From UHGV virus genome UHGV-2113352: a stretch of DNA of 15,144 nucleotides, one strand, 5' to 3'. Positions 1 through 15,144 of this stretch are shown here, in pieces. Position numbers and translations under genes: made by a program. Within the stretch, counting starts at the first letter, position 1, and the number at the start of each line of letters is the position of its first letter. The notes under the pieces are model-generated. The model saw only the letters and a program-made list of their open reading frames with translations, searched no databases and was not told the DNA's origin. This DNA is from a virus.

Positions 1-202
1 GCTTACCGCTCATGGGCACCTCTCTTTAAGTCATCTTAAATGACTCTGAGGTGTCTGTTAAACCTGTGGCGATTCATCCCAGATGAACGCTACCAACTTC
101 GACAAGAAAAAACATTGCCTATCTTAGCAAAGTTCAAAGCTTGGCTCGATTCTGTATTCCAACTTATTGATTACAACTAAAAACTGAATGACAATCTGAA
201 AA

Positions 203-694: not shown

Positions 695-3600
695 TTAATC
701 CCCTTGTATAGGCTGGTAAGTTTTTCAAGTCTAATTGCCAGTGGAGCTAACAAAGTGTGATAGGAGAACGGATCTCCTAGCTCTTCATTTACTTCCCCAA
801 GAAAATCCAAATCTTCAAATTTCTCATGGACCAAACGAGCAAAGCGACTTCGCGCATTTTCAGAAAATATTGGTTTTAACTGCATAGTTTTTCGGACCAG
901 CTCTAGTGCTTCATCCCTATTATCACTGATCAACCGATCAAATGACGATGCCATTCTTCGCTCTCCATCTGCATCATCAAACTCATCGGAAGCTAGTCGC
1001 AGCACACCACTCAAGTAGTTCAAGAATGCATTATCTTTGTATGACTCTAGGAATCGAGAAATCTGACCTCGTAGGATCGTCATCTTCTCGCTGCTTACTA
1101 AATGTTCCGAGCCCTCTTCTTCATCAGTTTCAAAAAAAACTGATGGCCATAACCTCACCGACACAGAATTCTCAGCCATATTGAGCAAAAGTTGGCTCGA
1201 CTTGTCGTGTCTGAAATAACCCTCTAACTTCTCCTTAAATTCTTTACCATCCATCCTGCCTTCAGCAAATAAACTACAGTGTTCATAAACATTCTTCTGT
1301 GACTGGCGGCGGTTGTAGACAAAATGGTCATAGGACCAAAGTAAAAGAACAAGAAAGATAAATTGCGATTTATCGATAGACCCTTTTCTCAGCTTGTCGC
1401 AGAGAATTTTGTAGTACTGGTTATCACTACTGAACACATCAGCGAGCTTAAACTCAGGATCATACTTTCTGACGGTATGCTCAATTTTCTTTTCCAGGCC
1501 TTCTTCCGATAGGCACTGGAACTCGACAGAGAGCGTTCCATTAAAAAAGTCTTCGATTACCCAGTCAGAGACAATACCTAATTGAGAAAGGCGGTAGATA
1601 GCCTTTTCCAATTTAAACTTTTCCGTACCAAACTGCCTGGCAGTAATGGTCACCGTGTTGTGTTCCTGATTGTACTTAAAAAATTCGTATACATTTGCCA
1701 TCAACTTGAACTCATCATTGATTGTGTCCAAGCCGTTTGTCATCAGGAATAGATTTGTGTTCAGGTCGCTATCGCGACTCAATGACTTCACGTACTCCTT
1801 CAGATCTTTGACGTTCGTGCTAGCGTCCCAAATCTTGTCGAGAATAGCTGAATTGGGCTCTTTTGTGAGAAGCACATAGCAATCTGCGGGTACTTCCTTG
1901 AATAGTTTTTTATCTCGCCCTGCCCTGCCAGCTTCCTGATACAAGGCCTCCATCGACCCAGGTATTCCGAAGTGAACCGTATAGGCAATATTTCCCTTAT
2001 TCACGCCCATTCCGAATGCCTTAGTGGCAGTAAGTAGGCGGTATTTATTTTCTTTAAAATCGTCTTGAACTTGGCGCTTATATCTATCGAAAGCCTCTCC
2101 CTGCAATCCACCCATTTTCGGAGCCGACCCCGAAAAATATCTAACATCCATCTTCAAGAGTGTTGATATTCGGCCCGCTAAGCTATAACACCCCTTAGCT
2201 CCGTTGACGGTAGAAGTGAATATGATCCCCGCCTTATTGCCGTCTTCCCCATCTGAATTCCATTTACCCTCCATTTCAGAAACAAGCTCGACGACTGCAT
2301 CACCTTTACGGCCTTTATCGTCAATGACGTGGAATGATAGTTCCTCGCGAGTGAAGTCCATGGGGGTACGGACAAAATCATCTGGGATATCAAACTCTGT
2401 TTGAATATCCTTTAGGACGTTAACTGATGCTGTTGCCGTTAGACCTATATAACTCGCACTGGGAGCAAACCGTTCGATTGTATTTGCCAGGTTCAGATAA
2501 GAAGTCCTGAAATCATGTCCCCACTCAGACAAACAGTGAGCTTCATCGATCACCGCGTAGGCAAATGAGAGATCTAGTCCGATAGCCAACATCTCTTTTC
2601 TAAACGCATGGGTTTGGAATCGCTCAGGCGATATAAAAACGAAGAAGTACTTACCACGTCCGAAATCTCTCTGAACTTTGGCCTTCTCTCCTGCCTTCAA
2701 ATCACTTGTAATAAAATTGCTTCGAGTGAAGCCGATGCTATCCAAATCTGCTTTCTGGTCATACATCAAACTTTTTATCGGGCACACGACAAAGCTAACG
2801 GCTGGTTGCAGGACCGCAGACAGCTGGTAACAAATCGACTTACCCGAACCTGTAGGCAGCAATCCTATTGTGCCGTTTTTCGAAAGTGCAGATCCTATGA
2901 TACCAACCTGCCCTTCCCTGAAATCTACATCCTCTAGGTATGGTAGAAACAGGTTGCTGAGGAAGTATCTCAGCGACTCTCTCTGCTCGCTGCCTGGGCT
3001 AAGATCTAGCTTGTAGGTAATGGGGTTACTACATGAAAGCTCGAAAAAGTCATAGTCAATCAATTGACTGGTTTCTATTGAAACAGCATCAGAATCTTCG
3101 AAGTTTCGATAGAAATCGAAGTAATCCGTACGTGAATATATGACGTCTTGGTTAACTTGAAAGGAATCGTCATAACGCTCCAGTAAGCTGAAGTCGATGA
3201 ATATATTTTCACCAGACCGTTCGCTCGGAAGCTCATCTGATTCGATCAGCGCAACCTCAATTCGCTTTTCTTCAATGCCGATGAGACGAAAGATATTCGA
3301 TAACAAATCGTTCAGGTCGTCCAGTGCCGCTTCAGCAAAATCAGTTCCATCACGATTGACTATGAATAGTTTTTTCAACTCCCCTAGTCTGATCTGACCG
3401 CGTTCAAGAAGCTCTAATAACAGTATCTGGAAACGCAACGCCGAGGTCAGCCTCAATCGCGAGTCAGTAACATCGACTCCATTTTCATAAGCCTCTTGGT
3501 AATTCAATAAAGAAATACCATTAGGAGGCGTTAGGACACCATTTCGCTCTAGACTATCAACGAGCTGAATTTGAGAAATAATCGAATTTATCTTACTGAT

Positions 3601-5364
3601 AAATGACTGATTCTCAGATGCCACTTCTCGAACAGTGAAACGAACTGTCTTCAGTCCCAAGGTTTCAGTAAACGCATCCCTCATCTCATCTAAATGCTGA
3701 GAATTTTGGTGCTGTTGACCATCTATCTCAATAATTAAACCAACTTGAGGAATGTAAAAATCTACCTGTCGGTTCTGGAATTGTTCAACGTAGACCTGAG
3801 TCATATCGTAAATCTGAACTTCAGGGAGCATTAGTTGTTTTACAAAAATGTACTCACCGAAATACTTTGGAATCAGCTCATCAAAAAACCTTTTCGCTGG
3901 GTAGTACCCAGAATGCTTGTTGCCTCGAATCAATCTATTCCAAAAAACTGGCTTATCTGACACAAGAGCCTGAGCTGATGTATTAAGACCGCTCTTCTCC
4001 AGTTCAATGCCAAATGCCTTCCTCAGTTTCCGCGAGGCTATTGTTGGCTTCCCTCTCTGAAGCATATTCTTAAGAACTTGAATTGCTGCAAATAGCTGTC
4101 CAGACGCCGCTTCAGACGAGATAGAATACTGGAGAAGATTGTGGAAAATGAAGTTATGGTTGGTTCTCGCGTAGTTAGCAGAAAACTTCTTGCTTACAAG
4201 CCTGCTACTAGACTTCGACCTGACATGTCTAGATAGTTCACTTTCGTCCGCCAGCGAGTCGATGATTGGGTTGTACAAATCTGAAAACAGTTGGTTATTG
4301 TGTTGTTGTTCTTGGCTGTCAGTGCCTAGCTCCAATCTATAGAGAGTTTTAACCAACGTAAAAATGTAAATACTTGAATTCGGAAAAGCTTGAGATAGAC
4401 AGCGTGTTATCTCATCAGTTGTAGCCCCCGAAGTTAATACGTCGTCAATGATCAGAAATGTCGGATTTGAATTAGCTTCTATTGAATCAAAATCGGCTTT
4501 ATAGGCACCTCTGACCTGGTGGAGTCTTTGTGCTGCAGTGCAATTAGTCGATTTATCTAATACGTGATCTTTCTCTAATATCTTAGGTTGGTAAGAAGCC
4601 CCTAAAGCAACAGCCAGCGATTTGCCCAAGGTATCTAATGCTTTATCGTCATCTTCAGCCCTAAGCTCAGCGTGACCTAACGCTCGAACAACTATATCTA
4701 TGGCTGGGAATGAAGGAGCTAGCTCAACAGTCTTGTTAACCCAGCGGCGAACAGAAGTATTCTTGTTATCCTTGAAAGACCAAACTTCCTGTTTGATACC
4801 ATCTAAATAGAATCCCAGATGAAGTTTATTCCCAGATTGTATTAACTCAGAACGTCCAGTTCTTGCGGAGCTCCGCGTCGAGTTTTTTCCAATAAGCTCG
4901 GAGAGACTGCTTATTCCCTTATGTGACGAATCGATCTCCGAGGCAGAACCCCAATCTACTGAGAAAAACTCAACTCCTGCATTGGAAGCAGCGTCTCGAT
5001 CTAGGTTACTATCTCCTAAATAAATTGACTCGTCGGCGCTAACACCGAAGTACTCGAGAATACGAGTAACGCCCTCAGGGCTCGGCTTATGCTGCGTTAC
5101 ATCATGGTAGGCTACTACATAATCAACAGTGATACTGAAGTGTTTGAGTAGCCCCTGAACGTAGTTCGAAGGCGCATTCGAGAAGATAGCAACCTTGATT
5201 CCAACCGACCGAGCCGTTGTAACAAGGCCGACAACGTCCTGATTGATGACACAACCATTAAAGTACCTGGGTATGTCTCTCCATCGGCCAGCTGACCGAA
5301 GTGGTTCGAGGCTTGATGTATCAATAAGCGTGTCATCAAGATCGAGGACGATGACCTTTATCAC
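688..5364 (-). CDS. Giant multidomain protein: N-terminal HAD-type phosphatase, phosphoribosyltransferase (PRTase), DUF559 (Vsr-like) endonuclease-like domain, RecQ-like SF2 helicase, and an unassigned ~400-aa C-terminal region
   Basis: 1558-aa uninterrupted ORF. HAD motif I LDLDDTL (aa 7-13) and motif IV GDSNLD (aa 117-122), nt about 4945-5364. PRTase PRPP-binding motif FLIIDDVLTSGATT (aa 303-316, nt 4417-4458). DUF559-type motif VDFYIPQVGLIIEIDGQQH followed by ..RD..L..G..RF (aa 534-577, nt about 3565-3957). RecQ-type helicase motifs: Walker A LPTGSGKS (aa 836-843, nt 2836-2859, checked against DNA), VIDEAHCLSEWGHDFR (aa 938-953, checked), LTATA (aa 975-979), YQEAGRAGRD (aa 1142-1151). GTG start at 5362-5364 overlaps the TGA stop of the upstream DprA-like gene (GTGA); SD-like AAGGTGG sits 6 nt upstream. 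Confidence 0.85.
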   Translation of the reverse strand: MIKVIVLDLDDTLIDTSSLEPLRSAGRWRDIPRYFNGCVINQDVVGLVTTARSVGIKVAIFSNAPSNYVQGLLKHFSITVDYVVAYHDVTQHKPSPEGVTRILEYFGVSADESIYLGDSNLDRDAASNAGVEFFSVDWGSASEIDSSHKGISSLSELIGKNSTRSSARTGRSELIQSGNKLHLGFYLDGIKQEVWSFKDNKNTSVRRWVNKTVELAPSFPAIDIVVRALGHAELRAEDDDKALDTLGKSLAVALGASYQPKILEKDHVLDKSTNCTAAQRLHQVRGAYKADFDSIEANSNPTFLIIDDVLTSGATTDEITRCLSQAFPNSSIYIFTLVKTLYRLELGTDSQEQQHNNQLFSDLYNPIIDSLADESELSRHVRSKSSSRLVSKKFSANYARTNHNFIFHNLLQYSISSEAASGQLFAAIQVLKNMLQRGKPTIASRKLRKAFGIELEKSGLNTSAQALVSDKPVFWNRLIRGNKHSGYYPAKRFFDELIPKYFGEYIFVKQLMLPEVQIYDMTQVYVEQFQNRQVDFYIPQVGLIIEIDGQQHQNSQHLDEMRDAFTETLGLKTVRFTVREVASENQSFISKINSIISQIQLVDSLERNGVLTPPNGISLLNYQEAYENGVDVTDSRLRLTSALRFQILLLELLERGQIRLGELKKLFIVNRDGTDFAEAALDDLNDLLSNIFRLIGIEEKRIEVALIESDELPSERSGENIFIDFSLLERYDDSFQVNQDVIYSRTDYFDFYRNFEDSDAVSIETSQLIDYDFFELSCSNPITYKLDLSPGSEQRESLRYFLSNLFLPYLEDVDFREGQVGIIGSALSKNGTIGLLPTGSGKSICYQLSAVLQPAVSFVVCPIKSLMYDQKADLDSIGFTRSNFITSDLKAGEKAKVQRDFGRGKYFFVFISPERFQTHAFRKEMLAIGLDLSFAYAVIDEAHCLSEWGHDFRTSYLNLANTIERFAPSASYIGLTATASVNVLKDIQTEFDIPDDFVRTPMDFTREELSFHVIDDKGRKGDAVVELVSEMEGKWNSDGEDGNKAGIIFTSTVNGAKGCYSLAGRISTLLKMDVRYFSGSAPKMGGLQGEAFDRYKRQVQDDFKENKYRLLTATKAFGMGVNKGNIAYTVHFGIPGSMEALYQEAGRAGRDKKLFKEVPADCYVLLTKEPNSAILDKIWDASTNVKDLKEYVKSLSRDSDLNTNLFLMTNGLDTINDEFKLMANVYEFFKYNQEHNTVTITARQFGTEKFKLEKAIYRLSQLGIVSDWVIEDFFNGTLSVEFQCLSEEGLEKKIEHTVRKYDPEFKLADVFSSDNQYYKILCDKLRKGSIDKSQFIFLVLLLWSYDHFVYNRRQSQKNVYEHCSLFAEGRMDGKEFKEKLEGYFRHDKSSQLLLNMAENSVSVRLWPSVFFETDEEEGSEHLVSSEKMTILRGQISRFLESYKDNAFLNYLSGVLRLASDEFDDADGERRMASSFDRLISDNRDEALELVRKTMQLKPIFSENARSRFARLVHEKFEDLDFLGEVNEELGDPFSYHTLLAPLAIRLEKLTSLYKGINW

Positions 5365-6347
5365 AGCAGGCCACCTTTTGCTTTCAATGACCCAAATGAA
5401 CTCGCGATATCTTCTAATTGAAGACGAATATCTTCATAAGATTCGCTCGTGTATGGTATCGCCCTCCCTTCGTTAACTAGCTGTTGAGTTCCTGAAATTG
5501 CCTTGATAGTAAGATCTGGATACTTAGCTTTATGTACGTCAGGAACGAAGACAGGACGCATCATAGAGATAGCAGATTTGACTGCGTGCATCGTCCCACC
5601 ATCTATCGAAGTTTCAATAGCAAAGACGGCAGTAGATAAACCTGCTTGTATCCTGTCTCGCTTAGCAAAGAACGCAGGTATTGCTTTGGTTCCTGGTGCA
5701 TTCTCTGCAACTAGAAGTCCGCCCTCGTCCAATATTTCCTTAGCGAGTTCCCGATTACTTGCGGGAGAAATAGACTCCACATCGACAAGAACAGAAATCG
5801 TTGGTGTTTTGGCATCTAATGCCGCGCGATGAGCAATTGTATCGATACCCAGTGCAAGTCCACTGACTATCGTGAAGCCATAAGTCGCAAACTTTTGAAT
5901 AGTTTTAATCGTTAGGGTTTCACCCTTGGGGGTATTTTCACGAGTTCCTACAACAGCTAATGAAAGCCTATTCTCTAAGAGATTTAGATTGCCTTTACAG
6001 TAAAGAAAGGGTGGAGGTTTTGGGAGATCATATAACGAAATTGGATAGTTTTTCGAACCGAAGATAACAATCTCAACTCCTTTATTTTTGAACGAATCAA
6101 TCTCTGTTTTTACTTCGTCCCTGAGAGCCTGGAAGTTCGCAGCGTCGAAGAAACTTTCGAGAGTTGCTCGAGATTTACCATTTGAGATTTTCAGATTGGA
6201 GGAGTTACGTACCAGTTCTTCGAGTGTTGACACTCCGCTGTACGCTGAAAACTTTAAGATTGACAGAACAGTTTCATCACCAACGCTCATTAACTTCTTG
6301 AGAACAAGAGCATCTACAATGTTCACTTCTCCCCCAAAGAACGACAA
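5361..6347 (-). CDS. DprA/Smf-like (SLOG superfamily) Rossmann-fold protein; first gene of the candidate defence operon
   Basis: 328-aa ORF. The central region (LAVVGTRENTPKGE..IVSGLALGIDTIAHRAAL..TISVLV..GGLLVAENAPGT..FFAKRDRIQAGLS..VFAIETSIDGGTMHAV) follows the conserved pattern of the DprA Rossmann domain (GxR.., SGLAxGID..AH..AL, FxxRNRiIaGLS, ..SG). The first start on the track is TTG at 6345-6347; the true start may be the downstream GTG (codon 8) or ATG (codon 20). Confidence 0.75.
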   Translation of the reverse strand: MSFFGGEVNIVDALVLKKLMSVGDETVLSILKFSAYSGVSTLEELVRNSSNLKISNGKSRATLESFFDAANFQALRDEVKTEIDSFKNKGVEIVIFGSKNYPISLYDLPKPPPFLYCKGNLNLLENRLSLAVVGTRENTPKGETLTIKTIQKFATYGFTIVSGLALGIDTIAHRAALDAKTPTISVLVDVESISPASNRELAKEILDEGGLLVAENAPGTKAIPAFFAKRDRIQAGLSTAVFAIETSIDGGTMHAVKSAISMMRPVFVPDVHKAKYPDLTIKAISGTQQLVNEGRAIPYTSESYEDIRLQLEDIASSFGSLKAKGGLL

Positions 6348-6460
6348 TTTTTAGTCCATTTACCATGCAGATTAATTGTATTCGACCAAGAACACAACAC
6401 AAACAAATATAGAATCGCCACGGATAATTTAGACACTTCCGAGCCGTTGATAATACTGGT

Positions 6461-7672
6461 TCAAACTAATGCAGCTATGCCTTTTACCTTGCTTAAAAGT
6501 TCAAGCTGTCGTGAATAAGGTTTTGCGCAATAGTAGGCTTTGATAATCTGCCCCGGTGTCGCATCGCCGGGGTCGAGTCCTTCCTCGCCCAAACACGCTA
6601 CTTTGACATTAAGACCGATACTGGTCAGTCGCCTGGCTGCGGCCATCGTGTTGCGTATAGCTTGCTTTTCACTATCCCACATCATAATCACATTACGTAA
6701 TCCACGCGCCTTGAGCGTCAGGAACGCGCCCAACTGATCTTCTGCATCCTGAGTGGTGTTACCAGATAGATGCATCCCGAACGTTCCTATCGGTTCCACG
6801 TAATCGCGTAATGTTTCTTCATCAAAAATAGCTCGTTTAACCCCCATAACATCGAACGCCCCCTCACAGACAACTACAGTCTGTTTGCCGACTGCATTGT
6901 GGCCGTTGTAGAGAAATTTACCCGATGCTGGCAGCTGCATGGGGAACAGATACCGGCGTTCTGCTGCACCGGTAATGTCACGACCCTGGAAGGTCTTCAT
7001 CACGCCATCCAGATCGTAAACCGGTATCAGTATTCGCATATCGAATACCTGTCCTTTGACCTGGTCTGTGTACGGATCGACGTATGCGTGCTTGCCTTCG
7101 ACGCAGTAACGCAGATCAAAGTATTTGGCCAGCTCCGGGGAAATCTGGCGCTCCACCAGATAATCAGGAAGACGACCGTCAATGGGGAGTTCGTAATGGC
7201 GCGGGAGAGCTACCGGTCCTTCCAGTTCAACCTTGCTGGCCAGTACGATCTCTTCCTTCTTCGGTGCCCATCCTTGTGAGATCAGCGCGTTCTGGACGTA
7301 CTCTTCAAAATCGCGACGAGATTTGCCGCTGTAATGCTTTAGGAAGACCAGCTTGTTGAACTGAATCTTTTCGGGATGATCACCTGCAAAGCATTTGCCG
7401 ACACCACTGGTCAGGTTGAAATAAACCTTCCAGTTTGAGCTGCCGCATACCGGACACTCTTTAATGTTGACCTCTCGTCCGCGAGTACTGACTCCACCAC
7501 GACGGTAGATGATCCCTTCCATATCGAGCCATTGCTCAAAATCCAGCTCGGTCAGTAATTCTTTCAAGTCGCTCACGTTCTTACCCCTATTTTTTGCAGG
7601 TAATATCTTGATAAGCCTCGGTATTTGAATATCATAAAGGCTCATGTGTTTTTTCTTTTGTGGTTTTGGCAA
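6461..7672 (-). CDS. DNA primase, phage T4 gp61-like (zinc ribbon plus TOPRIM)
   Basis: 403-aa ORF. Zinc-ribbon motif CPVCGSSNWKV..C..DH; the stretch ILIPVYDLDGVMKTFQGRDI..VVVCEGAFDVMGV resembles the T4 gp61 primase core (..IPIYN..G....FQGRAL..VYVLEGPIDSLF) as I remember it. Lies directly downstream of the helicase gene, as gene 61 follows gene 41 in T4. The track start is TTG 7670-7672; an in-frame ATG at 7643-7645 (MSLYDIQ..) is a plausible alternative start. Confidence 0.7.
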   Translation of the reverse strand: MPKPQKKKHMSLYDIQIPRLIKILPAKNRGKNVSDLKELLTELDFEQWLDMEGIIYRRGGVSTRGREVNIKECPVCGSSNWKVYFNLTSGVGKCFAGDHPEKIQFNKLVFLKHYSGKSRRDFEEYVQNALISQGWAPKKEEIVLASKVELEGPVALPRHYELPIDGRLPDYLVERQISPELAKYFDLRYCVEGKHAYVDPYTDQVKGQVFDMRILIPVYDLDGVMKTFQGRDITGAAERRYLFPMQLPASGKFLYNGHNAVGKQTVVVCEGAFDVMGVKRAIFDEETLRDYVEPIGTFGMHLSGNTTQDAEDQLGAFLTLKARGLRNVIMMWDSEKQAIRNTMAAARRLTSIGLNVKVACLGEEGLDPGDATPGQIIKAYYCAKPYSRQLELLSKVKGIAALV

Positions 7673-7700
7673 AAGAGAAATTTGTTCTCTTCTGGAGACA

Positions 7701-7736
7701 GGCGTGGAGAGTGTTTCCCCACGCCTTCTTTTTTAG
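7701..7736 (+). terminator. Hairpin plus T-run between helicase and primase genes, oriented as a plus-strand intrinsic terminator
   Basis: GGCGTGG (7701-7707), 11-nt loop, CCACGCC (7719-7725), then TTCTTTTTT. The T-run follows the stem only on the plus strand; on the minus (coding) strand it is an A-run preceding the stem. The T-run overlaps the helicase stop codon (7733-7735). Confidence 0.3.
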
Positions 7737-9073
7737 AGGACGTCCATAATGCGTTCGATGAATCGCATTTGTTCGAGGTTCTGCTTAACGCGGATGCTTA
7801 CGCCGCCTTTCTGGTTACGTGAACCAGCGAAGTAAAGACGCGCTTCGCCTTTCGCTTCTTCTTCTTCCGTTTTGTTGATAGTGATAACGAGGTCAGCGAT
7901 ACGCACCTTCTCGATGTTGTCCGCTGCGTGCATCATTGTAGCCACCTCAGAAGCGCCACCTTCTCTGTTAGTCTGCGATGCCGTGATGCCGGCAACGTTG
8001 TGTTTGTCGTACAGCGCACGCAGGTCAGTGTAGATGCTGCGAATGTTAGCGCGGTCGTCGCGGAGGTCGTAGCTGGCACGCATCAGGTCAGCGTAGTCGA
8101 CCACAACCATATCGGGGACCATACCGTTGGCTTTCATGCTGCCCAACATACGGTCCAGATCTGCGGGCGACATGCTTCCGGACGGTCGTTCAACAATCCA
8201 CAAACTTCCCACGCCTTTCGTCGCACCCAGCTCCGCCAGTTTGCGATGGACGTCATCGCGACGTTCCACCAGCCTGGACATTTCGGTCTCAGACAGACGG
8301 GCGTCAAAGCGATCTGACAGAATGGAGGTGTGAACTTCCAGCGACAGATACAGGACGTTGTAACCGGCAAGCGTGGCGTTGATGGAAAACTCCCCCATCG
8401 CCGTCGATTTACCAGACTTAGCGAAGCCCATAAATAGCACCATTTCACGCTTTGCCCAGCCTTTCTGGTAAAGCAGCTTGTCGAGCAGCGGGAGGCCGGT
8501 AGTGATGCTGTTTGGCACGTAATCGTCGGACGCTTCGTACTCACGGGCCTTGTAACGCTCCGCTGATTCTGCGAAGTAATCGTAAATGCCGGTCGCTTCG
8601 TTAGAGCCAATTTGCTGGACCTTAGCCATGATTGCCATCGCGCCCTGGAAATCGCCCTTCTCTTTCATCTCAGCCGCTTTAATTAGCGCATCGTCGAAAG
8701 CTACGCTTTTAGCAAATGTCGCGACCTGGTCGACCATGTACGCCGTATCTGACAGCTTCTCAGCGAGAATGCGCTTAAACGCCTCAACAACGTCAGGGAA
8801 CAGCTCTTCGCGGATCGTCTTATCGCGTTTGGCGCGTTTGAGCATGTCGAGGATGGCTGATGATGATGGTGCGCTCTTATACATTCTGTAGTAGCCCGAC
8901 ACCATGTTAACCAGAATGGAGTTAGCCGCATTAGAGAACTGGTTTGGGGCAACCAGATCGCCTGCGCGAGTCAGAAACTCATGGTCGCGACAGAAGTAGG
9001 CAGCGAGTCTATTCTGGAAGTCGTCGTCGAACTCTTCAGACAACCCTCGTCCTGTGTGGCAAAGTTCGGTCAT
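7733..9073 (-). CDS. Replicative DNA helicase, DnaB family, phage T4 gp41-like
   Basis: 446-aa ORF. Walker A GFAKSGKST; NVLYLSLEV and VVVDYADLM segments and the C-terminal region parallel T4 gp41 (NVLYISMEM, IIIVDYLGI) as I remember it. ATG start at 9071-9073 with SD-like AAGGAAAG 6-7 nt upstream on the minus strand. Confidence 0.8.
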   Translation of the reverse strand: MTELCHTGRGLSEEFDDDFQNRLAAYFCRDHEFLTRAGDLVAPNQFSNAANSILVNMVSGYYRMYKSAPSSSAILDMLKRAKRDKTIREELFPDVVEAFKRILAEKLSDTAYMVDQVATFAKSVAFDDALIKAAEMKEKGDFQGAMAIMAKVQQIGSNEATGIYDYFAESAERYKAREYEASDDYVPNSITTGLPLLDKLLYQKGWAKREMVLFMGFAKSGKSTAMGEFSINATLAGYNVLYLSLEVHTSILSDRFDARLSETEMSRLVERRDDVHRKLAELGATKGVGSLWIVERPSGSMSPADLDRMLGSMKANGMVPDMVVVDYADLMRASYDLRDDRANIRSIYTDLRALYDKHNVAGITASQTNREGGASEVATMMHAADNIEKVRIADLVITINKTEEEEAKGEARLYFAGSRNQKGGVSIRVKQNLEQMRFIERIMDVL

Positions 9074-9092
9074 GTGCTTTCCTTTGATACTT

Positions 9093-9112
9093 AAACAAAT
9101 TGTTTTCTAATA
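9093..9112 (-). promoter_or_regulatory. Candidate promoter/operator upstream of the helicase gene (motif B, copy 1)
   Basis: Plus-strand AAACAAATTGTTTTCTAATA; read on the minus strand it is TATTAGAAAACAATTTGTTT. It contains the inverted repeat AACAA-N-TTGTT, lies 20-39 nt upstream of the helicase ATG, and has a -10-like TAGTAT/TATTAG with a -35-like TTGATC 17 bp further upstream (plus 9132-9137). It matches 18 of 20 positions with 12013-12032. Confidence 0.4.
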
Positions 9113-9133
9113 CTAGAAAATCCAGATAGGGGA

Positions 9134-9859
9134 TCAACAGAATCGCCGTGCTTCTTCCAGTTCTTCCGGGAAATGCGCATAAATTACACGCTCAGGTACG
9201 ATTTCCATCAACCAGACTGCGGAGAAGATGATGCGGATGCGTTTATCTCGGGTAATGCCACGCAGACGCTCCAGAATCCACTCAAAATAGCGTTCTTGAA
9301 TCGGGTCGTGCTGCATGTCTCCCAGATACTTAAAACTCACCAGAGAGTCATCCAGACGGGTTACAGCGCGTTTGGCTAACTTCTCTTCGAATATCTCGAT
9401 CAGCTCGGGCTGCCAGAGATGCTGGGGGCGAGGCAATTTGTCCCACAGACGGCGCGCAGCTGCGGACAGAACGGTAGAAATGAAGTAGTCATAAGAGCAG
9501 CAGTACTGGTCGGCAAACTGGCGTGCTTTCCAGAGAGACGTTTTGTTGACCGTCGACAACTCCTGATATGGCACACGCTTCAGACCGGTTGTGAATGGAG
9601 CCGTCTCATAGTGTTCACGACCATGCGACAGCATGATGTATGAGTACTGGCGCTTGTATGCCTCAGTGAAAAGGCATGTGGCCATGAGCGGGTGCATATC
9701 GCGATAGTCAAACCATTTGGTTTCGAACAGTTCCGCCTCGTCCTTGCAACGTGACAGGCCAATGTTCTCCGCGACCCACTTATCCATGACTGCGGTGTTC
9801 CACTCTGTCATGAAATCGTACTGGTCATTGTCGATAGTGTTGAAGAAGATCTGGCTCAC
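9134..9859 (-). CDS. Hypothetical protein, first gene of the helicase-primase operon
   Basis: 241-aa ORF with GTG start at 9857-9859 and SD-like AAAGGGAA upstream. Co-directional and closely spaced with the helicase gene. No family recognised by eye. Confidence 0.55.
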   Translation of the reverse strand: MSQIFFNTIDNDQYDFMTEWNTAVMDKWVAENIGLSRCKDEAELFETKWFDYRDMHPLMATCLFTEAYKRQYSYIMLSHGREHYETAPFTTGLKRVPYQELSTVNKTSLWKARQFADQYCCSYDYFISTVLSAAARRLWDKLPRPQHLWQPELIEIFEEKLAKRAVTRLDDSLVSFKYLGDMQHDPIQERYFEWILERLRGITRDKRIRIIFSAVWLMEIVPERVIYAHFPEELEEARRFC

Positions 9860-9871
9860 ATGATTCCCTTT

Positions 9872-9893
9872 AATAGGTATGTACTTACTTATC
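9872..9893 (-). promoter_or_regulatory. Candidate operator (motif A, copy 1) upstream of the 241-aa gene and replication operon
   Basis: AATAGGTATGTACTTACTTATC; the 15-mer TAGGTATGTACTTAC (9874-9888) is identical to 14611-14625. Imperfect inverted repeat around the central TGTACT. Lies 13-34 nt upstream of the GTG start at 9859. Confidence 0.4.
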
Positions 9894-9964
9894 TAAGTGA
9901 GCGAATCATAGCGACTGGAGATATTTTTGGGAAGTGGAAACGGAAGGGAGTTGTTCTGGTGGGT

Positions 9965-9978
9965 GTCTTTTAAAAGAC
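9965..9978. promoter_or_regulatory. Perfect 14-bp palindrome GTCTTTTAAAAGAC in the divergent intergenic region
   Basis: Self-complementary 14-mer, flanked by CGGAAG (left) and CTTCCG (right) inverted segments and followed by an AT-rich tract (about 9990-10035). Lies between the divergently transcribed replication operon and the GIY-YIG-like gene. Confidence 0.35.
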
Positions 9979-10159
9979 CTGCTTCCGTATATATTTAATA
10001 AGTTACTTATTATTTATATACAGAAACAGGCATAACTTGTCGTCTTAGACACCCAGAAGCTCTACACTTTGAGCCTGTAAAATTGATTAAAAACTTATGT
10101 GTAAAATAGAACGCATTAGTCAGTAGCTAAGAGATGATTTATCGGTATACGCGAGATCA

Positions 10160-10897
10160 TTGGATAAGGCTAAATACTATGTTTACTGTCTCTATGATAC
10201 AGAAGACAAGATGAAAAGACCGTTTTACATAGGAAAAGGCAAATCGACTCGTTGTCTCGATCACATCAAGTATCCCGATGACTCTCCCAAATCCATGCGG
10301 ATCAAAGAACTTTTGGCTAATAAAAAATTAGGCATAGATATTCTTCGTCATGGTATGGATGAAACCACAGCCAAACTTGTTGAGGCGACATGCATCGACC
10401 TTATGGGGGTCGGAGAGCTTACGAATAAGGTACGAGGAAGTGGTTCCATGATGGGCAGAATATCACTGGACGCCTACCATCACTTAGTGCTGCAAGAGGA
10501 AACTGAAATTGCTCCTGAGCACGCCGGTCTTGCCTTCCTGCTAAACAGCACCTACAAGTCAGGAATGTCCGCTCTGGCATTATATGAAGCTACGCGTGGC
10601 GTATGGGCAAAGGTTCCAAGAGACGAGAATCTCAAATATGCCTACGCTACATATGGGGGCCTGATAATGGAAGTTTATCAGATTGAATGCTGGGTCAAAG
10701 CCGGTTCTCAGCAGTACTTTACAAGGGATATAGCTCTTGGCCCCGACACAAAACGTTATGAATTTGTTGGCAGAATAGCCGATGAGCATATTAGAAAACT
10801 GTATGTAGGCAAATTAATCAAGAAGCCACCAAGCTACGGCAGCCCTTTTGTGAAGGTTGGGGTGGTTAGGAATGAACATAGTGTTAGCGCGGCATAA
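10160..10897 (+). CDS. Hypothetical protein with an N-terminal GIY-YIG-like nuclease motif
   Basis: 245-aa ORF, the only long plus-strand gene in this region and divergent from the replication operon. N-terminus YYVYCLYD..KRPFYIGKGKSTRCLDH fits the GIY-(10-11)-YIG-..R..H pattern of GIY-YIG nucleases. The C-terminal ~150 aa is unassigned. Confidence 0.4.
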   Translation: MDKAKYYVYCLYDTEDKMKRPFYIGKGKSTRCLDHIKYPDDSPKSMRIKELLANKKLGIDILRHGMDETTAKLVEATCIDLMGVGELTNKVRGSGSMMGRISLDAYHHLVLQEETEIAPEHAGLAFLLNSTYKSGMSALALYEATRGVWAKVPRDENLKYAYATYGGLIMEVYQIECWVKAGSQQYFTRDIALGPDTKRYEFVGRIADEHIRKLYVGKLIKKPPSYGSPFVKVGVVRNEHSVSAA

Positions 10898-10949
10898 AGC
10901 TGACACTGTACTTATGCATTGGCGCGTACATTGCGCCAATGCATAATTT

Positions 10950-11309
10950 TTAACCTTTCTTCATCAACTCTCGTTTGATTTCATCGGTACGCATCGTGAC
11001 ATCGGCAGCTGTGATCGCCTCGTTAAGTTTCACGATGTCCTCGATTTCCTGCGGTGACTTCTCTGCCAGATGGAAAATGGCTGCGCGAATCACGTCAGAA
11101 CGGGTGAACTTCTCGAAACGAGGGATGAACTTCATCATTTCCAGCAGTTCGAAGTATTCGTCCTCCAGTGACATTGTGCGGCTTTTAATTTTCTCTTTGC
11201 CACGAGTCGGGCGTCCCTGTGGTCTGACTGGTTGGCGCAAAGGAGTTGTGTTCTTGGCCGGTGCATCAGGCTCTTTGCGCTTTGCTAGGTCACCCATTTT
11301 CATGGACAT
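10950..11309 (-). CDS. Putative partition adaptor / centromere-binding protein (ParG/ParB-like small partner of ParA)
   Basis: 119-aa ORF immediately downstream of the ParA-like gene; its ATG (11307-11309) overlaps the ParA TAA by 1 nt. Basic, Pro-rich N-terminal tail and a helical C-terminal half, as in small type Ib partition partners. Assignment is by position and composition only. Confidence 0.45.
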   Translation of the reverse strand: MSMKMGDLAKRKEPDAPAKNTTPLRQPVRPQGRPTRGKEKIKSRTMSLEDEYFELLEMMKFIPRFEKFTRSDVIRAAIFHLAEKSPQEIEDIVKLNEAITAADVTMRTDEIKRELMKKG

Positions 11310-11977
11310 TATTCTTCTTCCTCCAGACTCAACAGATAATCTACAAATTCTTCAAACTCGGCTTCCGCCTTTTTGTCGCGCTCGCTACCGGTCATTTCAA
11401 AGATAGAACGACCAGACTCTTCCGCATCATCATAGACGTTGCGGTTATATAAATTGACTGGCGCAGACTCGATGCCAAACGTCTCGACAATCTCTTTAGC
11501 CGCCAAAATGCGAGACACTTGTGATGGCAAAGCCGGGCACTGGTTCATGACCGCGCGGACCTTCACTTTATCGTTTACATTACGAACATTGTCGATAATA
11601 GGATCGATGTCACGCAGAGATTTCAAATCACGACGCTTAGGACGAAGCGGGATAATGATAACGTCGGCCATCAGCATCGCTTGTCGCTGAATTTCGGAGT
11701 CAAAGCCACCAGCATCTACCACTACAAACTCAGCTCTACCCTGAAGCGATTTTAGGTGCTTAATGATGTCATCCTGAACGTATGCAAAAGGAATCAGCTC
11801 AAGGTCTTCGTTCTGTCGACGGTCTTCACACCAGCTTGTTGTCGTGCGCTGAATATCTATATCAGTGATATAAACCTTCTTCTTCTTTTTGACTTTCAGG
11901 CAAACGGCAATTTGCTGGGCAACAGTGGATTTGCCAGGCCCGCCCTTTGTGCCGCCAACCACAAAGATCTTGGTCAT
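11309..11977 (-). CDS. parA: ParA-family partition ATPase (short, type Ib-like)
   Basis: 222-aa ORF. Deviant Walker A IFVVGGTKGGPGKST near the N-terminus and VVVDAGG (Walker A'/B-like); the size is typical of plasmid ParF/ParA type Ib ATPases. ATG at 11975-11977 with SD-like AAAGGGAA upstream. Confidence 0.65.
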   Translation of the reverse strand: MTKIFVVGGTKGGPGKSTVAQQIAVCLKVKKKKKVYITDIDIQRTTTSWCEDRRQNEDLELIPFAYVQDDIIKHLKSLQGRAEFVVVDAGGFDSEIQRQAMLMADVIIIPLRPKRRDLKSLRDIDPIIDNVRNVNDKVKVRAVMNQCPALPSQVSRILAAKEIVETFGIESAPVNLYNRNVYDDAEESGRSIFEMTGSERDKKAEAEFEEFVDYLLSLEEEE

Positions 11978-12012
11978 TGGAGAGTTCCCTTTGCGTATAT
12001 AATTATCGTCTG

Positions 12013-12032
12013 AAACAACTTGTTTTCTTATA
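12013..12032 (-). promoter_or_regulatory. Candidate promoter/operator upstream of parA (motif B, copy 2)
   Basis: Plus-strand AAACAACTTGTTTTCTTATA; minus-strand sense TATAAGAAAACAAGTTGTTT with a -10-like TATAAG and the inverted repeat AACAA-N-TTGTT. Lies 36-55 nt upstream of the parA ATG. Confidence 0.4.
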
Positions 12033-12256
12033 TGTGATATAGCCTAAATGCCTACGGCTGCGGTGTAAAGGTTATTTAGTAGGTTGTTATTGCCTATTGC
12101 TAGTAACTGTTTTCATTTGTCTGTTGAAAAAAGTGACAATCATCTCTATATTACGAGTACGGTAAATTGCCGTACACAATTTGATGACACATACGCAATG
12201 GGCTATAGCCCAGTTAAATAACCTTTGAGTCGAAAACTCAGTTTAAATAGAGAGCA

Positions 12257-12286
12257 ATGATGGCCTTCCTACATCACCGGCCATCA
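12257..12286 (+). promoter_or_regulatory. Candidate TacA (antitoxin) autoregulatory operator
   Basis: Perfect 8-bp inverted repeat TGATGGCC (12257-12264) and GGCCATCA (12279-12286) with a 14-bp spacer, ending directly before the AGGGGG SD and the ATG at 12297. Confidence 0.4.
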
Positions 12287-12296
12287 GGGGGTACAC

Positions 12297-12566
12297 ATGT
12301 CCGCACTGAAAAAGCAGCGCATCGATTTGAGATTAACCGATGACGATAAAAGCATCATCGAGGAAGCTGCCGCAATGTCTAACCAGAGCATTACCCAGTT
12401 CATGGTTAGCAGTGCATCCGAACGTGCCGTGAAGGTGATAGAGCAACACCGTAGACTGGTTCTAAGTGAAGAGTCCTGGAATCTGGTTATGGATGCTATA
12501 AGCAATCCTCCGGCACCGAACGACAAGCTGAAACGAGCTGCCAATCGTCTGAAAAGCATGGAGTAA
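12297..12566 (+). CDS. DUF1778 (RHH-type) antitoxin of a GNAT toxin-antitoxin pair (TacA/AtaR-like)
   Basis: 89-aa ORF MSALKKQRIDLRLTDDDKSIIEEAAA..SNPPAPNDKLKRAANRLKSME closely matches the TacA/AtaR antitoxin family as I remember it. Sits 7 nt upstream of the GNAT toxin gene. AGGGGG SD before the ATG. Confidence 0.8.
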   Translation: MSALKKQRIDLRLTDDDKSIIEEAAAMSNQSITQFMVSSASERAVKVIEQHRRLVLSEESWNLVMDAISNPPAPNDKLKRAANRLKSME

Positions 12567-12573
12567 TTTACTC

Positions 12574-13095
12574 GTGAGCAATACGACGATCGAGATTTTC
12601 TCTGGAGAGAACGATTATGATCTAAACGGTTTTGATTGCGGCGAAGAGTCACTAAACGCATTTTTGACCAACCACTTAAAAAGACAGCATGAAGGAAAAA
12701 TTCTTCGCGCTTATGTGCTTTGCACTAAAGAAGAAATACCAAAGGTATTAGGTTATTACACTTTGTCAGGCAGCTGCTTTGAGAAAGAAACCTTACCTTC
12801 AAAGAGTCAGCAAAAGAAAGTGCCTTATCGGAATGTCCCAAGTATCACTTTAGGCAGACTGGCTTTGGACAAATCTCTTCAAGGTCAGGGGCTTGGCTCA
12901 ATGCTTGTAACTCACGCAATGCGTGTTGTGTACAATGCATCTCTTGCGGTAGGCATTCATGGGCTTTTCGTTGAGGCGTTGAACGATAAAGCCAGGGCGT
13001 TTTATAAAAGTTTGGGCTTTATCCAGCTGGTTGGTAACAACGATCGTTCTTTGTTCTATCCAACAAAATCTATCGAAAAATTGTTCGAAGAATAA
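12574..13095 (+). CDS. GNAT-family acetyltransferase toxin (TacT/AtaT-like, aminoacyl-tRNA acetylating)
   Basis: 173-aa ORF with GTG start. Acetyl-CoA binding motif QGQGLGSMLV; size and the upstream DUF1778 antitoxin are typical of TacAT/AtaRT/KacAT modules. Confidence 0.8.
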   Translation: MSNTTIEIFSGENDYDLNGFDCGEESLNAFLTNHLKRQHEGKILRAYVLCTKEEIPKVLGYYTLSGSCFEKETLPSKSQQKKVPYRNVPSITLGRLALDKSLQGQGLGSMLVTHAMRVVYNASLAVGIHGLFVEALNDKARAFYKSLGFIQLVGNNDRSLFYPTKSIEKLFEE

Positions 13096-13101
13096 TGTGT
13101 C

Positions 13102-13117
13102 CCCCTCATTTGAGGGG
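13102..13117 (+). terminator. GC-rich hairpin immediately after the tacT stop codon (possible terminator or stabilising stem-loop in the convergent gap)
   Basis: CCCCTC (13102-13107), loop ATTT, GAGGGG (13112-13117), starting 7 nt after TAA (13093-13095). No clear U-tract on the plus strand; modestly T-rich on the minus-strand side. Confidence 0.25.
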
Positions 13118-13127
13118 AACTTGGACA

Positions 13128-13343
13128 TCACCAACCGCAAACTCTCTCTCCCATCGTATTGTGAAAAAGGATTTGGCGTTCGGTTTCTTCGGTCATTACA
13201 TCGTCATTGCTGATATAAATAGGTTCAGCGCCATCGCAGAACAACACGCTGGTGGTCTGTGGCTTAATTACGCACCCACTTATCATGCAGCTCACGATGA
13301 ATGGCAGAAGCATCTTTCTGACGTATTTCACTGTTCGTCTCAT
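13128..13343 (-). CDS. Putative o-spanin (Rz1-like outer-membrane lipoprotein), overlapping the 3' end of the i-spanin-like gene in another frame
   Basis: 71-aa ORF with ATG at 13341-13343. Lipoprotein-type signal peptide: basic n-region MRRTVKYVRK, hydrophobic MLLPFIVSCMIS and lipobox ISGC. The short mature part has further Cys residues. Overlaps 13264-13343 of the upstream gene and extends beyond its stop, the overlapped spanin architecture. Confidence 0.4.
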   Translation of the reverse strand: MRRTVKYVRKMLLPFIVSCMISGCVIKPQTTSVLFCDGAEPIYISNDDVMTEETERQILFHNTMGERVCGW

Positions 13344-13515
13344 TCACCACTTCCACTGTGCTTTGAAGACGCTTGTTATCTTCCCGCCGTTCTTTCTCTT
13401 CCATACTGCGTCTGGCCATATACCCGCCATAGGAGTATGCGCCGACAAGGACTAGAATGACGGCGGCCAGAGTGAACAAAGCGGATTTCATTTTGAACAA
13501 CAGGCCGTCGAACAT
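13264..13515 (-). CDS. Putative i-spanin (Rz-like) or holin-like small membrane protein
   Basis: 83-aa ORF. N-terminal transmembrane segment ALFTLAAVILVLVGAYSYGGY followed by a highly charged periplasmic-type tail. ATG at 13513-13515 is only 2 nt downstream of the stop of the preceding gene. Contains the overlapping lipoprotein ORF. Confidence 0.4.
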   Translation of the reverse strand: MFDGLLFKMKSALFTLAAVILVLVGAYSYGGYMARRSMEEKERREDNKRLQSTVEVVNETNSEIRQKDASAIHRELHDKWVRN

Positions 13516-13517
13516 AC

Positions 13518-14237
13518 TTACACTAATCCTTTCTGGTGCTTGCGAACCTGGGACCAGGCAATGAATGCTGCCACAAGAATGGTAGCTACGCCAAAGATGA
13601 TGCGTACCGTATCTCCACTGGAGATATTGCCTTGCGCTTTATCCATTGCGGCAGAAACTTGAGGCATAACGTCAGCAATTTGTGCAAGGCCAATACCTGC
13701 AGTGACTGTAGCACCTGTGGTTTCTTTTGTTACTGGAACGGCTTTTACAGCCTTTACCGGTTTGACAATGCCGGCACGTCGCAGACCTTCTTCGATAAGT
13801 TCTGGTGTATACCAGCTATTGGGAGTTTTCAGCGGACCTCGGCCATTTTCATGTCTAATGATCGCCTCTACCAGCGGTCTTAAGGTCTCGTAGTCATGCA
13901 GATCGATAATCATATCTGGTGCTACTCCAACGGCTTTGGATACCTCGTTCACATAAGCCAAAGTGTTGTTCTCATGTGGAGGCGCCCAGCGTTCGATGAC
14001 TTCGCGGATCGTATCAATGCTGGAGCCATCTTTTGCGCGGCGCTTGTCGTGGTAAGTAATGAGTGTCACTGCCAATGCCCGAATCCCCCACACGGGGTCT
14101 TTAAACGTGCAGAAGCGCGGTTCTGAAGAGTTGTTGACTAAGCCCTGCCACGGCGCTCCTTTATCAAGATTACCGGGGTTGTTATTACGAATGCCTCTCG
14201 GAGTTTTCATCCTTGATCTCCTGTTATTGCAATCCAT
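13518..14237 (-). CDS. Hypothetical membrane-anchored protein; candidate lysis enzyme (endolysin-like) by position only
   Basis: 239-aa ORF with ATG at 14235-14237. Conserved-looking N-terminal motif RGIRNNNPGNL; C-terminal hydrophobic helix VRIIFGVATILVAAFIAWSQV. Located between a small membrane protein gene and the spanin-like pair. No catalytic family could be assigned by eye. Confidence 0.5.
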   Translation of the reverse strand: MDCNNRRSRMKTPRGIRNNNPGNLDKGAPWQGLVNNSSEPRFCTFKDPVWGIRALAVTLITYHDKRRAKDGSSIDTIREVIERWAPPHENNTLAYVNEVSKAVGVAPDMIIDLHDYETLRPLVEAIIRHENGRGPLKTPNSWYTPELIEEGLRRAGIVKPVKAVKAVPVTKETTGATVTAGIGLAQIADVMPQVSAAMDKAQGNISSGDTVRIIFGVATILVAAFIAWSQVRKHQKGLV

Positions 14238-14559
14238 TTTTTACGCCATACGCGGCCAATCCTAAAAGCAGTACGGTAATAATGAACGACGTTATTTTCG
14301 AAACAATGCCGCCAAAGAACCCACTGGAGATGGTGTCGAGCCGGTTAAGAAGTTTGTCCAGATTGGAGTGCTGAATGCTGTATTGTGCGGGCGTCATATC
14401 GCCAAAGTAGGTTTTGAGCTGGTCATTGACCTCCTGACCAATTTCCTCGCGTATTTCTTTACCTAATTTGCCTACGACTTCCCGAGCAACGATTGAGGCG
14501 ATGCGCTCAACCTGTTCAGTTGTGACTCCCGCCATCTCGTTCGACATGTTTTCCTCCAT
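14224..14559 (-). CDS. Small membrane protein, candidate holin or antiholin (positional inference)
   Basis: 111-aa ORF with ATG at 14557-14559. Hydrophilic N-terminal ~75 aa and a single C-terminal transmembrane helix ITSFIITVLLLGLAAYGV. Overlaps the next gene by 14 nt. Confidence 0.45.
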   Translation of the reverse strand: MEENMSNEMAGVTTEQVERIASIVAREVVGKLGKEIREEIGQEVNDQLKTYFGDMTPAQYSIQHSNLDKLLNRLDTISSGFFGGIVSKITSFIITVLLLGLAAYGVKNGLQ

Positions 14560-14607
14560 GAAAAGTCAAATCGGGATGGCGTGTTTATATCATATTTTAA
14601 CCATTTG

Positions 14608-14631
14608 TAGTAGGTATGTACTTACCTACTA
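14608..14631 (-). promoter_or_regulatory. Candidate operator (motif A, copy 2) upstream of the lysis-like operon
   Basis: TAGTAGGTA-TGTACT-TACCTACTA: a perfect 9-bp inverted repeat with 6-bp spacer. Lies 49-72 nt upstream of the ATG at 14559 and shares the 15-mer TAGGTATGTACTTAC with copy 1. Confidence 0.45.
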
Positions 14632-14680
14632 TATATCTTGCAAACTAATCGTTGTTAATAATGCAGATATAATCTGCCCC

Positions 14681-15028
14681 TTACTCTGCTGGTATTGTTG
14701 GCCAGTCAATATCCGGTGCCGTTGATGTGTCAATGCGGTTCAATAAAACTCTATACTTCTTCCATGCAGTCAGCAACGATGCTTCTTCCTCCGTTGCAAT
14801 CTCCAAATCTACAGCATCCTGAAGTGGCGCAATGTGCTCGCTGGCTACCTGCATCAGACTTTTTTTTGTTTCTTCCGCTTCCCGTACCTGAAACAATTTT
14901 TCTGTTTCCTTATCCTTCTCCCAGGATGTGCCGTCCCACTTCTGATATTCCCCATCCGGTGATAACCAGGTGACATTTTCCGGTAATGGCCCAAGTTCAG
15001 AAATAAACAACGCGTCCCCTGATTCCAC
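14681..15028 (-). CDS. Tail fibre assembly protein (Tfa family), apparently lacking an N-terminal domain
   Basis: 115-aa ORF ending ..[32 protein letters not shown], the conserved C-terminal signature of enterobacterial phage Tfa proteins (TfaE, Mu U, P1 U type). The track start is GTG at 15026-15028. The same frame stays open upstream to a stop at 15128-15130 and encodes ..[11 protein letters not shown].., which looks like continued Tfa homology, with no ATG/GTG/TTG in between. Confidence 0.7.
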
Positions 15029-15144
15029 GTCATAGACCGTTTTACCCCTGTGGTCTTCAACGAGACTCCGGTAATGACTCCAACTTATTGATAGTGTTTT
15101 ATGTTCAGATAATGCCCGATGACTTTGTCATGCAGCTCCACCGA

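Follow-up and report, generated by a model that had tools for sequence, protein, structure and literature searches.

A backbone segment assigned to the SSU5 supergroup of phage-plasmids, with replication, partition, toxin-antitoxin and lysis modules

Phage-plasmids of the SSU5 supergroup, which occur in Escherichia, Klebsiella, Salmonella and Yersinia, have been described as mostly IncFIB, siphovirus-type elements in which a conserved phage core is combined with a shell genome of variable, plasmid-like genes, among them those for toxin-antitoxin systems and PapC/PapD pili, and SSU5 itself was isolated as a phage (PMC7969092). Escherichia phage Cyrano is likewise a phage-plasmid, present at about 5.5 plasmid copies per cell, to which SSU5-like virions have been attributed (PMC9928086). 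Here we analyzed a stretch of 15,144 nucleotides from virus genome UHGV-2113352 (hereafter the window; all coordinates are window coordinates, save those given for another replicon), in which a sequence-only reading had recognized a phage-plasmid backbone with T4-type replication genes, a plasmid-type partition pair, an addiction module, and lysis and tail genes. We conclude, with a probability of about 93%, that positions 6461-15068 belong to the backbone of an SSU5-supergroup (pHCM2/pSLy3/pKpn) element from E. coli, that is, of a siphovirus phage-plasmid that is temperate and persists in lysogeny as a low-copy IncFIB plasmid. The analysis shows what the genes are, their synteny with SSU5 and Cyrano, and that relatives lie on plasmids; the roles in maintenance and lysis are predicted. 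The arrangement as such is already known, and the Cyrano annotation already shows exactly this gene order, KacT-type toxin included. Being textbook for the SSU5 group, it represents no new biology by itself, and its value lies in the context that it gives to the cargo genes.

Nucleotide relatives were sought by megablast against phage records and against plasmids. Among the phage records, Salmonella phage SSU5 (NC_018843, the type member of the supergroup) is collinear with the block at 87.5% nucleotide identity over the shared parts, as is Cyrano (pLF82, OV696614) at 86.0%, and Klebsiella SSU5-like elements match its replication-partition part only, at about 80%. The same part is also about 80% identical in pJN2-26, the annotated gene order of which agrees. 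In SSU5, Cyrano and pJN2-26, the genes follow one another as primase, helicase, SSU5_038, SSU5_034, the ParA-like SSU5_033, spanins, endolysin and holin; SSU5 shares both order and orientation with the window from primase to holin, and the module order of Cyrano is identical, including a KacT-type toxin-antitoxin pair. The differences lie between and beside these modules. SSU5 lacks the GNAT toxin-antitoxin pair of the window, holding two other genes (SSU5_031/032) in that hotspot, and lacks the PD-T4-3-like GIY-YIG gene, the slot of which is filled by three unrelated genes (SSU5_035-037); it also has another gene to the left of the primase and another tail-fibre tip, without the assembly gene of the lambda gpK type. 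In Cyrano, no cargo separates the ligase-side genes from the primase, the PD-T4-3 slot holds another gene, and the tail fibre resembles P1 S, whereas that of the window is of the Tfa/Stf type.

The nearest complete replicon is pLAO18 (NZ_OP242248.1), which is 98.3% identical over window positions 1-15069; positions 6448-15069 have matches of 97-99% in dozens of plasmids from E. coli and E. fergusonii. The sequence-only reading had proposed to compare the whole replicon with known phage-plasmids and to look in its remainder for capsid, terminase and integrase genes. The comparison gave the collinearity described above, and the genes were found in pLAO18, a circular, non-mobilizable IncFIB plasmid of 111,874 bp with repA at 1-1056, which carries genes for a major capsid protein, a large terminase, a tape measure and tail proteins, as well as for a DnaE-type Pol III alpha, a ligase, exonucleases, a thymidylate synthase and a tyrosine 'site-specific integrase'. 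This plasmid also shares the DprA/helicase cargo of the window, and differs from it in having an intact tail-fibre assembly gene (193 amino acids) with no insertion sequence (IS) IS1 there. In a set of 5,426 complete E. coli genomes, the modules were located as follows.

6461-9859, replication module: 263 genomes, 266 places on plasmids and 3 on chromosomes
13100-14650, lysis cassette: 243 genomes, 245 places on plasmids and 0 on chromosomes
12297-13095, toxin-antitoxin pair: 152 genomes, 152 places on plasmids and 0 on chromosomes

The element is of a common type, which about 5% of complete E. coli genomes contain; its IncFIB typing is that of the nearest relative. Together with the collinearity with SSU5 and Cyrano and the structural genes of pLAO18, these counts support the phage-plasmid reading, and they bear directly on the alternative that the DNA is an integrated chromosomal prophage, in which the partition and toxin-antitoxin genes would be relics. 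Chromosomal places for 3 of the 269 replication modules and the integrase-family gene of pLAO18 could be taken to favor integration. However, the three chromosomal matches come without the lysis cassette, and plasmids account for 266 of 269 replication modules, 245 of 245 lysis cassettes and 152 of 152 toxin-antitoxin pairs. The integrase of pLAO18 is no argument for integration, because the SSU5 supergroup, whose members are extrachromosomal, has tyrosine recombinases among its persistent genes (PMC7969092). We regard an integrated prophage as extremely improbable.

The partition and toxin-antitoxin genes are adjacent between the replication module and the lysis cassette.

10950-11309, minus strand: 119-amino-acid partner of ParA, candidate centromere-binding protein (ParG-like); 98% identical to SSU5_034, PHROG 5111
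11309-11977, minus strand: small ParF-like (type Ib) ParA ATPase of 222 amino acids; Pfam MipZ, AAA_31 and CbiA
12006-12075: near-invariant block upstream of parA, candidate promoter, operator or centromere
12297-12566, plus strand: antitoxin of the DUF1778/TacA family, AtaR/KacA subtype; Pfam TacA1, 3.5e-26
12574-13095, plus strand: GNAT acetyltransferase toxin, AtaT/KacT subtype; Pfam GNAT families above their cut-offs

A short ParA partition pair had been named from the sequence, and it was found again here. The ParA protein has the deviant Walker A motif KGGPGKST at residues 11-18 and no N-terminal DNA-binding domain; its nearest solved relative is ParF (PDB 4dzz, 1.2e-10), and it matches the NCBIfam family ParA_partition at 1.9e-33 with 115.7 bits, which is under the equivalog cut-off of 180. 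It is 91% identical to SSU5_033, which occupies the same position. The start of the 119-amino-acid gene overlaps the parA stop codon. Its product shows a weak, sub-threshold match (2.3e-4) to the aCcr1 family, the proteins of which have a ribbon-helix-helix fold, and an AF2 single-sequence model of moderate quality (pLDDT 67) predicts a basic, probably disordered stretch of 47 N-terminal residues followed by three helices. No Pfam match, including matches to ribbon-helix-helix families, was obtained even at E values up to 10. The protein fits a ParG-like partner, for which the weak aCcr1 match and the predicted fold are no proof, and the ParF-like ParA and this translationally coupled partner would together segregate the plasmid copies. 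In the Cyrano record, the homologue of the partner (6357-6716 of locus L007) is labeled 'RelE/ParE putative toxin'; this looks like a mis-annotation, because the homologue is coupled to parA and the window protein has no RelE/ParE match.

The block at 12006-12075, ahead of parA, shows 100% identity to SSU5 and hardly varies in Cyrano or in a Klebsiella relative whose overall identity is only 80%. Some 66-70 nucleotides are conserved across the four elements, as a single copy per replicon, and may represent the parA promoter/operator, possibly the centromere. An RNA element in the parA leader was considered and rejected, the folded RNA showing no unusual structure (z = +1.09).

The addiction module had been described as TacAT-like, a name that is right for the family and not for the subtype. 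The antitoxin scores 91.4 bits against TacA1 (cut-off 21) and matches KacA (PDB 5zgn_A) at 2.5e-41; it lies directly upstream of the toxin, with a gap of 7 nucleotides. The toxin matches PDB entries 6gts at 1.5e-78 and 6ajm at about 1e-78, both of which we take to be AtaT of E. coli O157, and KacT (5zgn_C) at 5.9e-76, whereas 5fvj, presumably the Salmonella TacT, is matched only at 7e-12. By these similarities, the pair is assigned to the AtaRT/KacAT subtype. Since the toxin is closely similar to the solved AtaT and KacT proteins, it is predicted to act by acetylating aminoacyl-tRNA and to be neutralized by the antitoxin; a pair of this type would act in post-segregational killing and possibly in defense. 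An antisense open reading frame at 12284-12661 (minus strand) was discarded as spurious, having no family match and lying opposite well-supported genes.

Whether these genes belong to the backbone or entered as part of another plasmid was judged from their surroundings. SSU5, Cyrano and pJN2-26 all have ParA and its partner at this position of the backbone, and the two are therefore backbone genes, not part of an adjoining plasmid segment. In MAFFT alignments, the stretch homologous to SSU5 extends from parA up to about 12075. From about 12076 the homology is lost, and it returns at about 13128, where the o-spanin gene ends; the toxin-antitoxin pair therefore forms a cassette of about 1.05 kb inside the backbone. 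In Cyrano, a KacT-type pair occupies the very same position between parA and the spanins. The alternative of a chimera or cointegrate, with ParA and toxin-antitoxin genes from a separate plasmid segment that came to adjoin the phage genes by chance or through IS-mediated fusion, could draw on the absence of the toxin-antitoxin pair from SSU5 and pJN2-26, on its lower G+C content and on the IS elements nearby. It is nevertheless very improbable, given the placing of ParA and its partner between the replication and lysis modules in all three relatives and the small size of a cassette that is flanked by backbone and recurs in Cyrano. Within E. coli, moreover, the toxin-antitoxin sequence was found on plasmid records only (at the sensitivity of megablast), and the 12 such records listed are of 95-214 kb, most of them of about 106-115 kb.

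The combination of partition and addiction genes with phage genes recalls P1, a temperate myovirus that is maintained as a low-copy plasmid, whose phage genes are interspersed with those of a partition system and an addiction module, and which carries dispersed operators. P1 uses a type Ia ParAB system and Phd/Doc, whereas the window has a small ParF-like ParA and a GNAT toxin-antitoxin pair; no sequence relationship between P1 and the window was seen, and P1 serves as a functional analogue only.

Several points weigh against the assignment of the segment to an SSU5-type phage-plasmid. Besides the three chromosomal places among 269, all without the lysis cassette, the ParA partner has at most a putative ribbon-helix-helix fold, and around parA no repeated centromere motif, such as the arrays typical of ParG-type sites, was found, only chance-like short two-copy matches. 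Genes for a replication initiator, capsid and terminase are not present within the window, both ends of the window are IS fragments, and the contig seemingly ends in repeats on either side; that this replicon is circular and complete is accordingly deduced from its relatives. For these relatives, a chromosomal location and an origin from separate segments are excluded, and we infer the same for the present replicon. The last point concerns the right end of the window.

14681-15068, minus strand: tail-fibre assembly gene of the lambda gpK/Tfa type; Pfam Caudo_TAP, 4.6e-42, 143.7 bits
15069-15144: terminal part of IS1 (InsB end), sequence GGTAATGACTCCAACTTATTGATAG from 15069

The tail-fibre assembly gene that had been read from the sequence is present and incomplete, its 5' end being cut off by IS1 at the junction 15068/15069: the start codon and the first 64 codons are missing, and the reading frame begins at residue 65 of the intact 193-amino-acid protein of pLAO18. 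Positions 15069-15144 are thus IS1 and not backbone. Because IS1 cuts this gene, virion production by this copy is doubtful, and it may no longer form fully infectious particles. A degraded, domesticated phage-plasmid, which would replicate and partition without yielding infectious virions while IS elements erode its tail module, would agree with the loss of these codons, with the IS3-family ends at 1-77 and about 6407-6455, and with the exact junction, which was found in no PLSDB plasmid; hybrid or defective elements are noted among phage-plasmids in PMC12977533. Against this stands the state of the remaining backbone reading frames in the window, which are intact and 97-99% identical to those of relatives with full structural modules; moreover, the assembly chaperone may be dispensable here, since pLAO18 also has a long J-like tail protein. 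Domestication is a serious but unlikely reading. An Rfam match to IS009 (190.6 bits) at 14721-14919 on the minus strand lies wholly within the tail-fibre assembly coding sequence; most likely it reflects a family defined on tfa-like prophage DNA and not a separate RNA gene.

To the left of the partition genes, a leftward operon makes up the replication module.

6461-7645, minus strand: DNA primase, probably of the DnaG family; PHROG 47 'DNA primase' at 3.5e-62, homologue of SSU5_040
7733-9073, minus strand: replicative helicase of the DnaB/gp41 family; Pfam DnaB_C at 6.5e-13, PHROG 19 at 4.3e-87
9134-9859, minus strand: conserved protein of 241 amino acids, first gene of the operon; PHROG 2500 at 1.7e-109, homologue of SSU5_038

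The helicase scores 49.1 bits against DnaB_C (cut-off 27) and has a Walker A motif (GFAKSGKST) and a Walker B motif. Its closest solved relative is T4 gp41 (8dtp/8due, a chain of 475 residues) at about 3e-10, whereas chains labeled merely 'Replicative DNA helicase' match at about 2e-3; a paper search assigned 8dtp to a study of the T4 gp41-gp61 primosome. To call the helicase gp41-like, as the sequence-only reading did, was fair. The primase was likewise called gp61-like, a name that holds at the level of the family only: it probably belongs to the DnaG family, as gp61 does, but its top solved match is PDB 5guj (9e-6), and T4 gp61 (8dvf_H, a chain of 342 residues) is matched only at about 4e-3. 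The longest open reading frame of the primase reaches 7672, and a RefSeq-style start would be the methionine at residue 10, at 7645. The translation contains a CxxC...CxxxxH zinc ribbon and the Toprim motif CEG, and the Pfam scores are just under their cut-offs (DNAG_N, 24 versus 26 bits; Toprim_2, 22.0 versus 22.1). A T4-type backbone is accordingly apt, if weakly, for the helicase and not for the replisome overall, the polymerase of pLAO18 being a DnaE-type Pol III alpha. The 241-amino-acid protein had no match in sequence searches of Pfam, NCBIfam and PDB, and an AF2 single-sequence model of it was discarded for its mean pLDDT of 39.7. The operon of this gene, the helicase of the gp41/DnaB type and the primase of the DnaG type would drive DNA replication of the phage type. 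Two genes had been passed over in the earlier account, namely that for the 241-amino-acid protein at 9134-9859 and the PD-T4-3-like GIY-YIG gene at 10160-10897.

To the right of the toxin-antitoxin cassette lie the lysis genes, all on the minus strand; lysis genes had also been named from the sequence.

13128-13343, minus strand: o-spanin, an Rz1-like lipoprotein with the lipobox ISGC (from the translation); SSU5_029/030 and the Cyrano Rz1 at the same place
13264-13515, minus strand: Rz-like i-spanin with an N-terminal transmembrane segment; PHROG 1026 at 4.2e-22
13518-14210, minus strand: endolysin; PHROG 873 at 3.2e-86, PDB 7q47 at 3.3e-56
14224-14547, minus strand: putative holin; PHROG 5093 at 7.1e-67 (a family without a named function), homologue of the 'putative holin' SSU5_026

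The o-spanin gene overlaps the i-spanin gene, and the cassette of putative holin, endolysin and overlapping spanins, after which come the tail-fibre genes, would serve lysis. The name holin rests, in SSU5, on position only. The endolysin ends in a C-terminal hydrophobic segment (IIFGVATILVAAFIAW) and is labeled 'membrane protein' in RefSeq, and the putative holin has a single transmembrane segment, which is C-terminal; such an architecture, with a hydrophobic endolysin C-terminus and a one-segment holin, is unusual for a lysis cassette. An antisense open reading frame at 13095-13460 (plus strand), again without a family match and opposite well-supported genes, was set aside as spurious.

Both leftward operons are preceded by a shared palindrome, and further inverted repeats lie between the replication and partition genes.

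9873-9892: 20-bp palindrome, site 1 (ATAGGTATGTACTTACTTAT), lying 14-33 bp ahead of the replication operon (start, 9859)
14610-14629: 20-bp palindrome, site 2 (GTAGGTATGTACTTACCTAC), upstream of the lysis cassette (start of the holin gene, 14547)
9978-10030: AT-rich inverted repeat with arms of 26 nucleotides, left edge of variable slot 2, terminator-like on the minus strand
10912-10946: perfect hairpin of 14-15 bp between the convergent GIY-YIG and partition genes

The two palindromic sites, which lie just upstream of their operons, share the exact 15-mer TAGGTATGTACTTAC at 9874-9888 and 14611-14625. Counted on both strands with up to three mismatches, they give four matches, a number that 0 of 200 shuffled sequences reached. 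SSU5 has palindrome half-sites at the same two promoter regions, and the half-sites TAGGTA and CTTAC(C/T)TA are kept at both places in SSU5, Cyrano and pJN2-26, with a differing center; at the holin site of pJN2-26, one further base of the half-sites differs. Eight more sites were found in pLAO18 (at 4321, 24172, 43073 and 47823 of locus L004, and at 22, 1077, 5923 and 12211 of locus L005), all of them intergenic and upstream of leftward genes, with the consensus ATAGGTAAGTACTTACCTAT. The outer half-sites are invariant between genomes at the two window sites, and single-base changes occur among the pLAO18 sites. The palindrome was also considered as an RNA hairpin, which was judged less likely: the differences between sites are not compensatory, and this favors a protein-binding operator. 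The palindrome is probably the operator of a regulator. No relevant description of its sequence, or of an SSU5 repressor/operator, was found in the searchable literature, and we tentatively suggest, as a possibility short of an even chance, that it serves a hitherto undescribed master regulator of SSU5-type phage-plasmids as operator. In that case, replication, nucleotide metabolism, packaging and lysis would be under a single switch acting through dispersed operators, as with the C1 operators of P1, to whose dispersed operators the 20-bp palindrome may be a parallel.

The AT-rich repeat at 9978-10030 is conserved in the window, SSU5, Cyrano and pJN2-26. In SSU5, a co-directional gene directly precedes it, and a T-run comes after it on the minus strand; in the window, it has been retained although the neighboring gene now runs in the opposite direction. 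For the hairpin at 10912-10946, the plus strand was the only one on which the scan marked a T-run, and a role as bidirectional terminator is inferred from its position between convergent genes.

Between these two repeats lies a gene in variable slot 2, which separates the replication and partition modules.

10160-10897, plus strand: LEM-3-like GIY-YIG nuclease, a defense gene of the PD-T4-3 type; Pfam PF22945 at 5.1e-7

Its product matches PD-T4-3 of PADLOC at 1.9e-23 and a solved GIY-YIG protein (PDB 9u7u) at 3.4e-15; it is a predicted defense nuclease, carried as cargo in the slot. The G+C content is 0.43-0.44 in the GIY-YIG and toxin-antitoxin slots, versus about 0.50-0.54 in the helicase/replication region. 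Including the IS-flanked region to the left of the primase, there are three cargo slots in the conserved backbone, and the neighboring DprA/giant-helicase operon, the GIY-YIG gene and the GNAT toxin-antitoxin pair are best understood as exchangeable cargo in defined hotspots.

The cargo operon to the left of the primase (203-6347, minus strand) resembles a fused defense system of the Shosta/PsyrTA type. Its DprA-like gene matches ShosA at 6.8e-68 and also PsyrA, and its protein of 1558 amino acids combines HAD, a ShosT-like stretch, a DUF559/Vsr-like nuclease and a DpdF/PsyrT-like RecQ helicase. The operon was found on only about four plasmids, most relatives having a fimbrial operon in that slot. 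An ISEhe3-like end of the IS3 family lies at 1-77, and a second IS3-family remnant, with a short inverted repeat (GAATCGCCACGGATAATTTAGACAC...), lies at about 6407-6455 and adjoins the primase stop codon. The bracketing of the slot by the ends of two different IS3-family elements suggests that the cargo to the left of the primase has been exchanged by means of IS elements.

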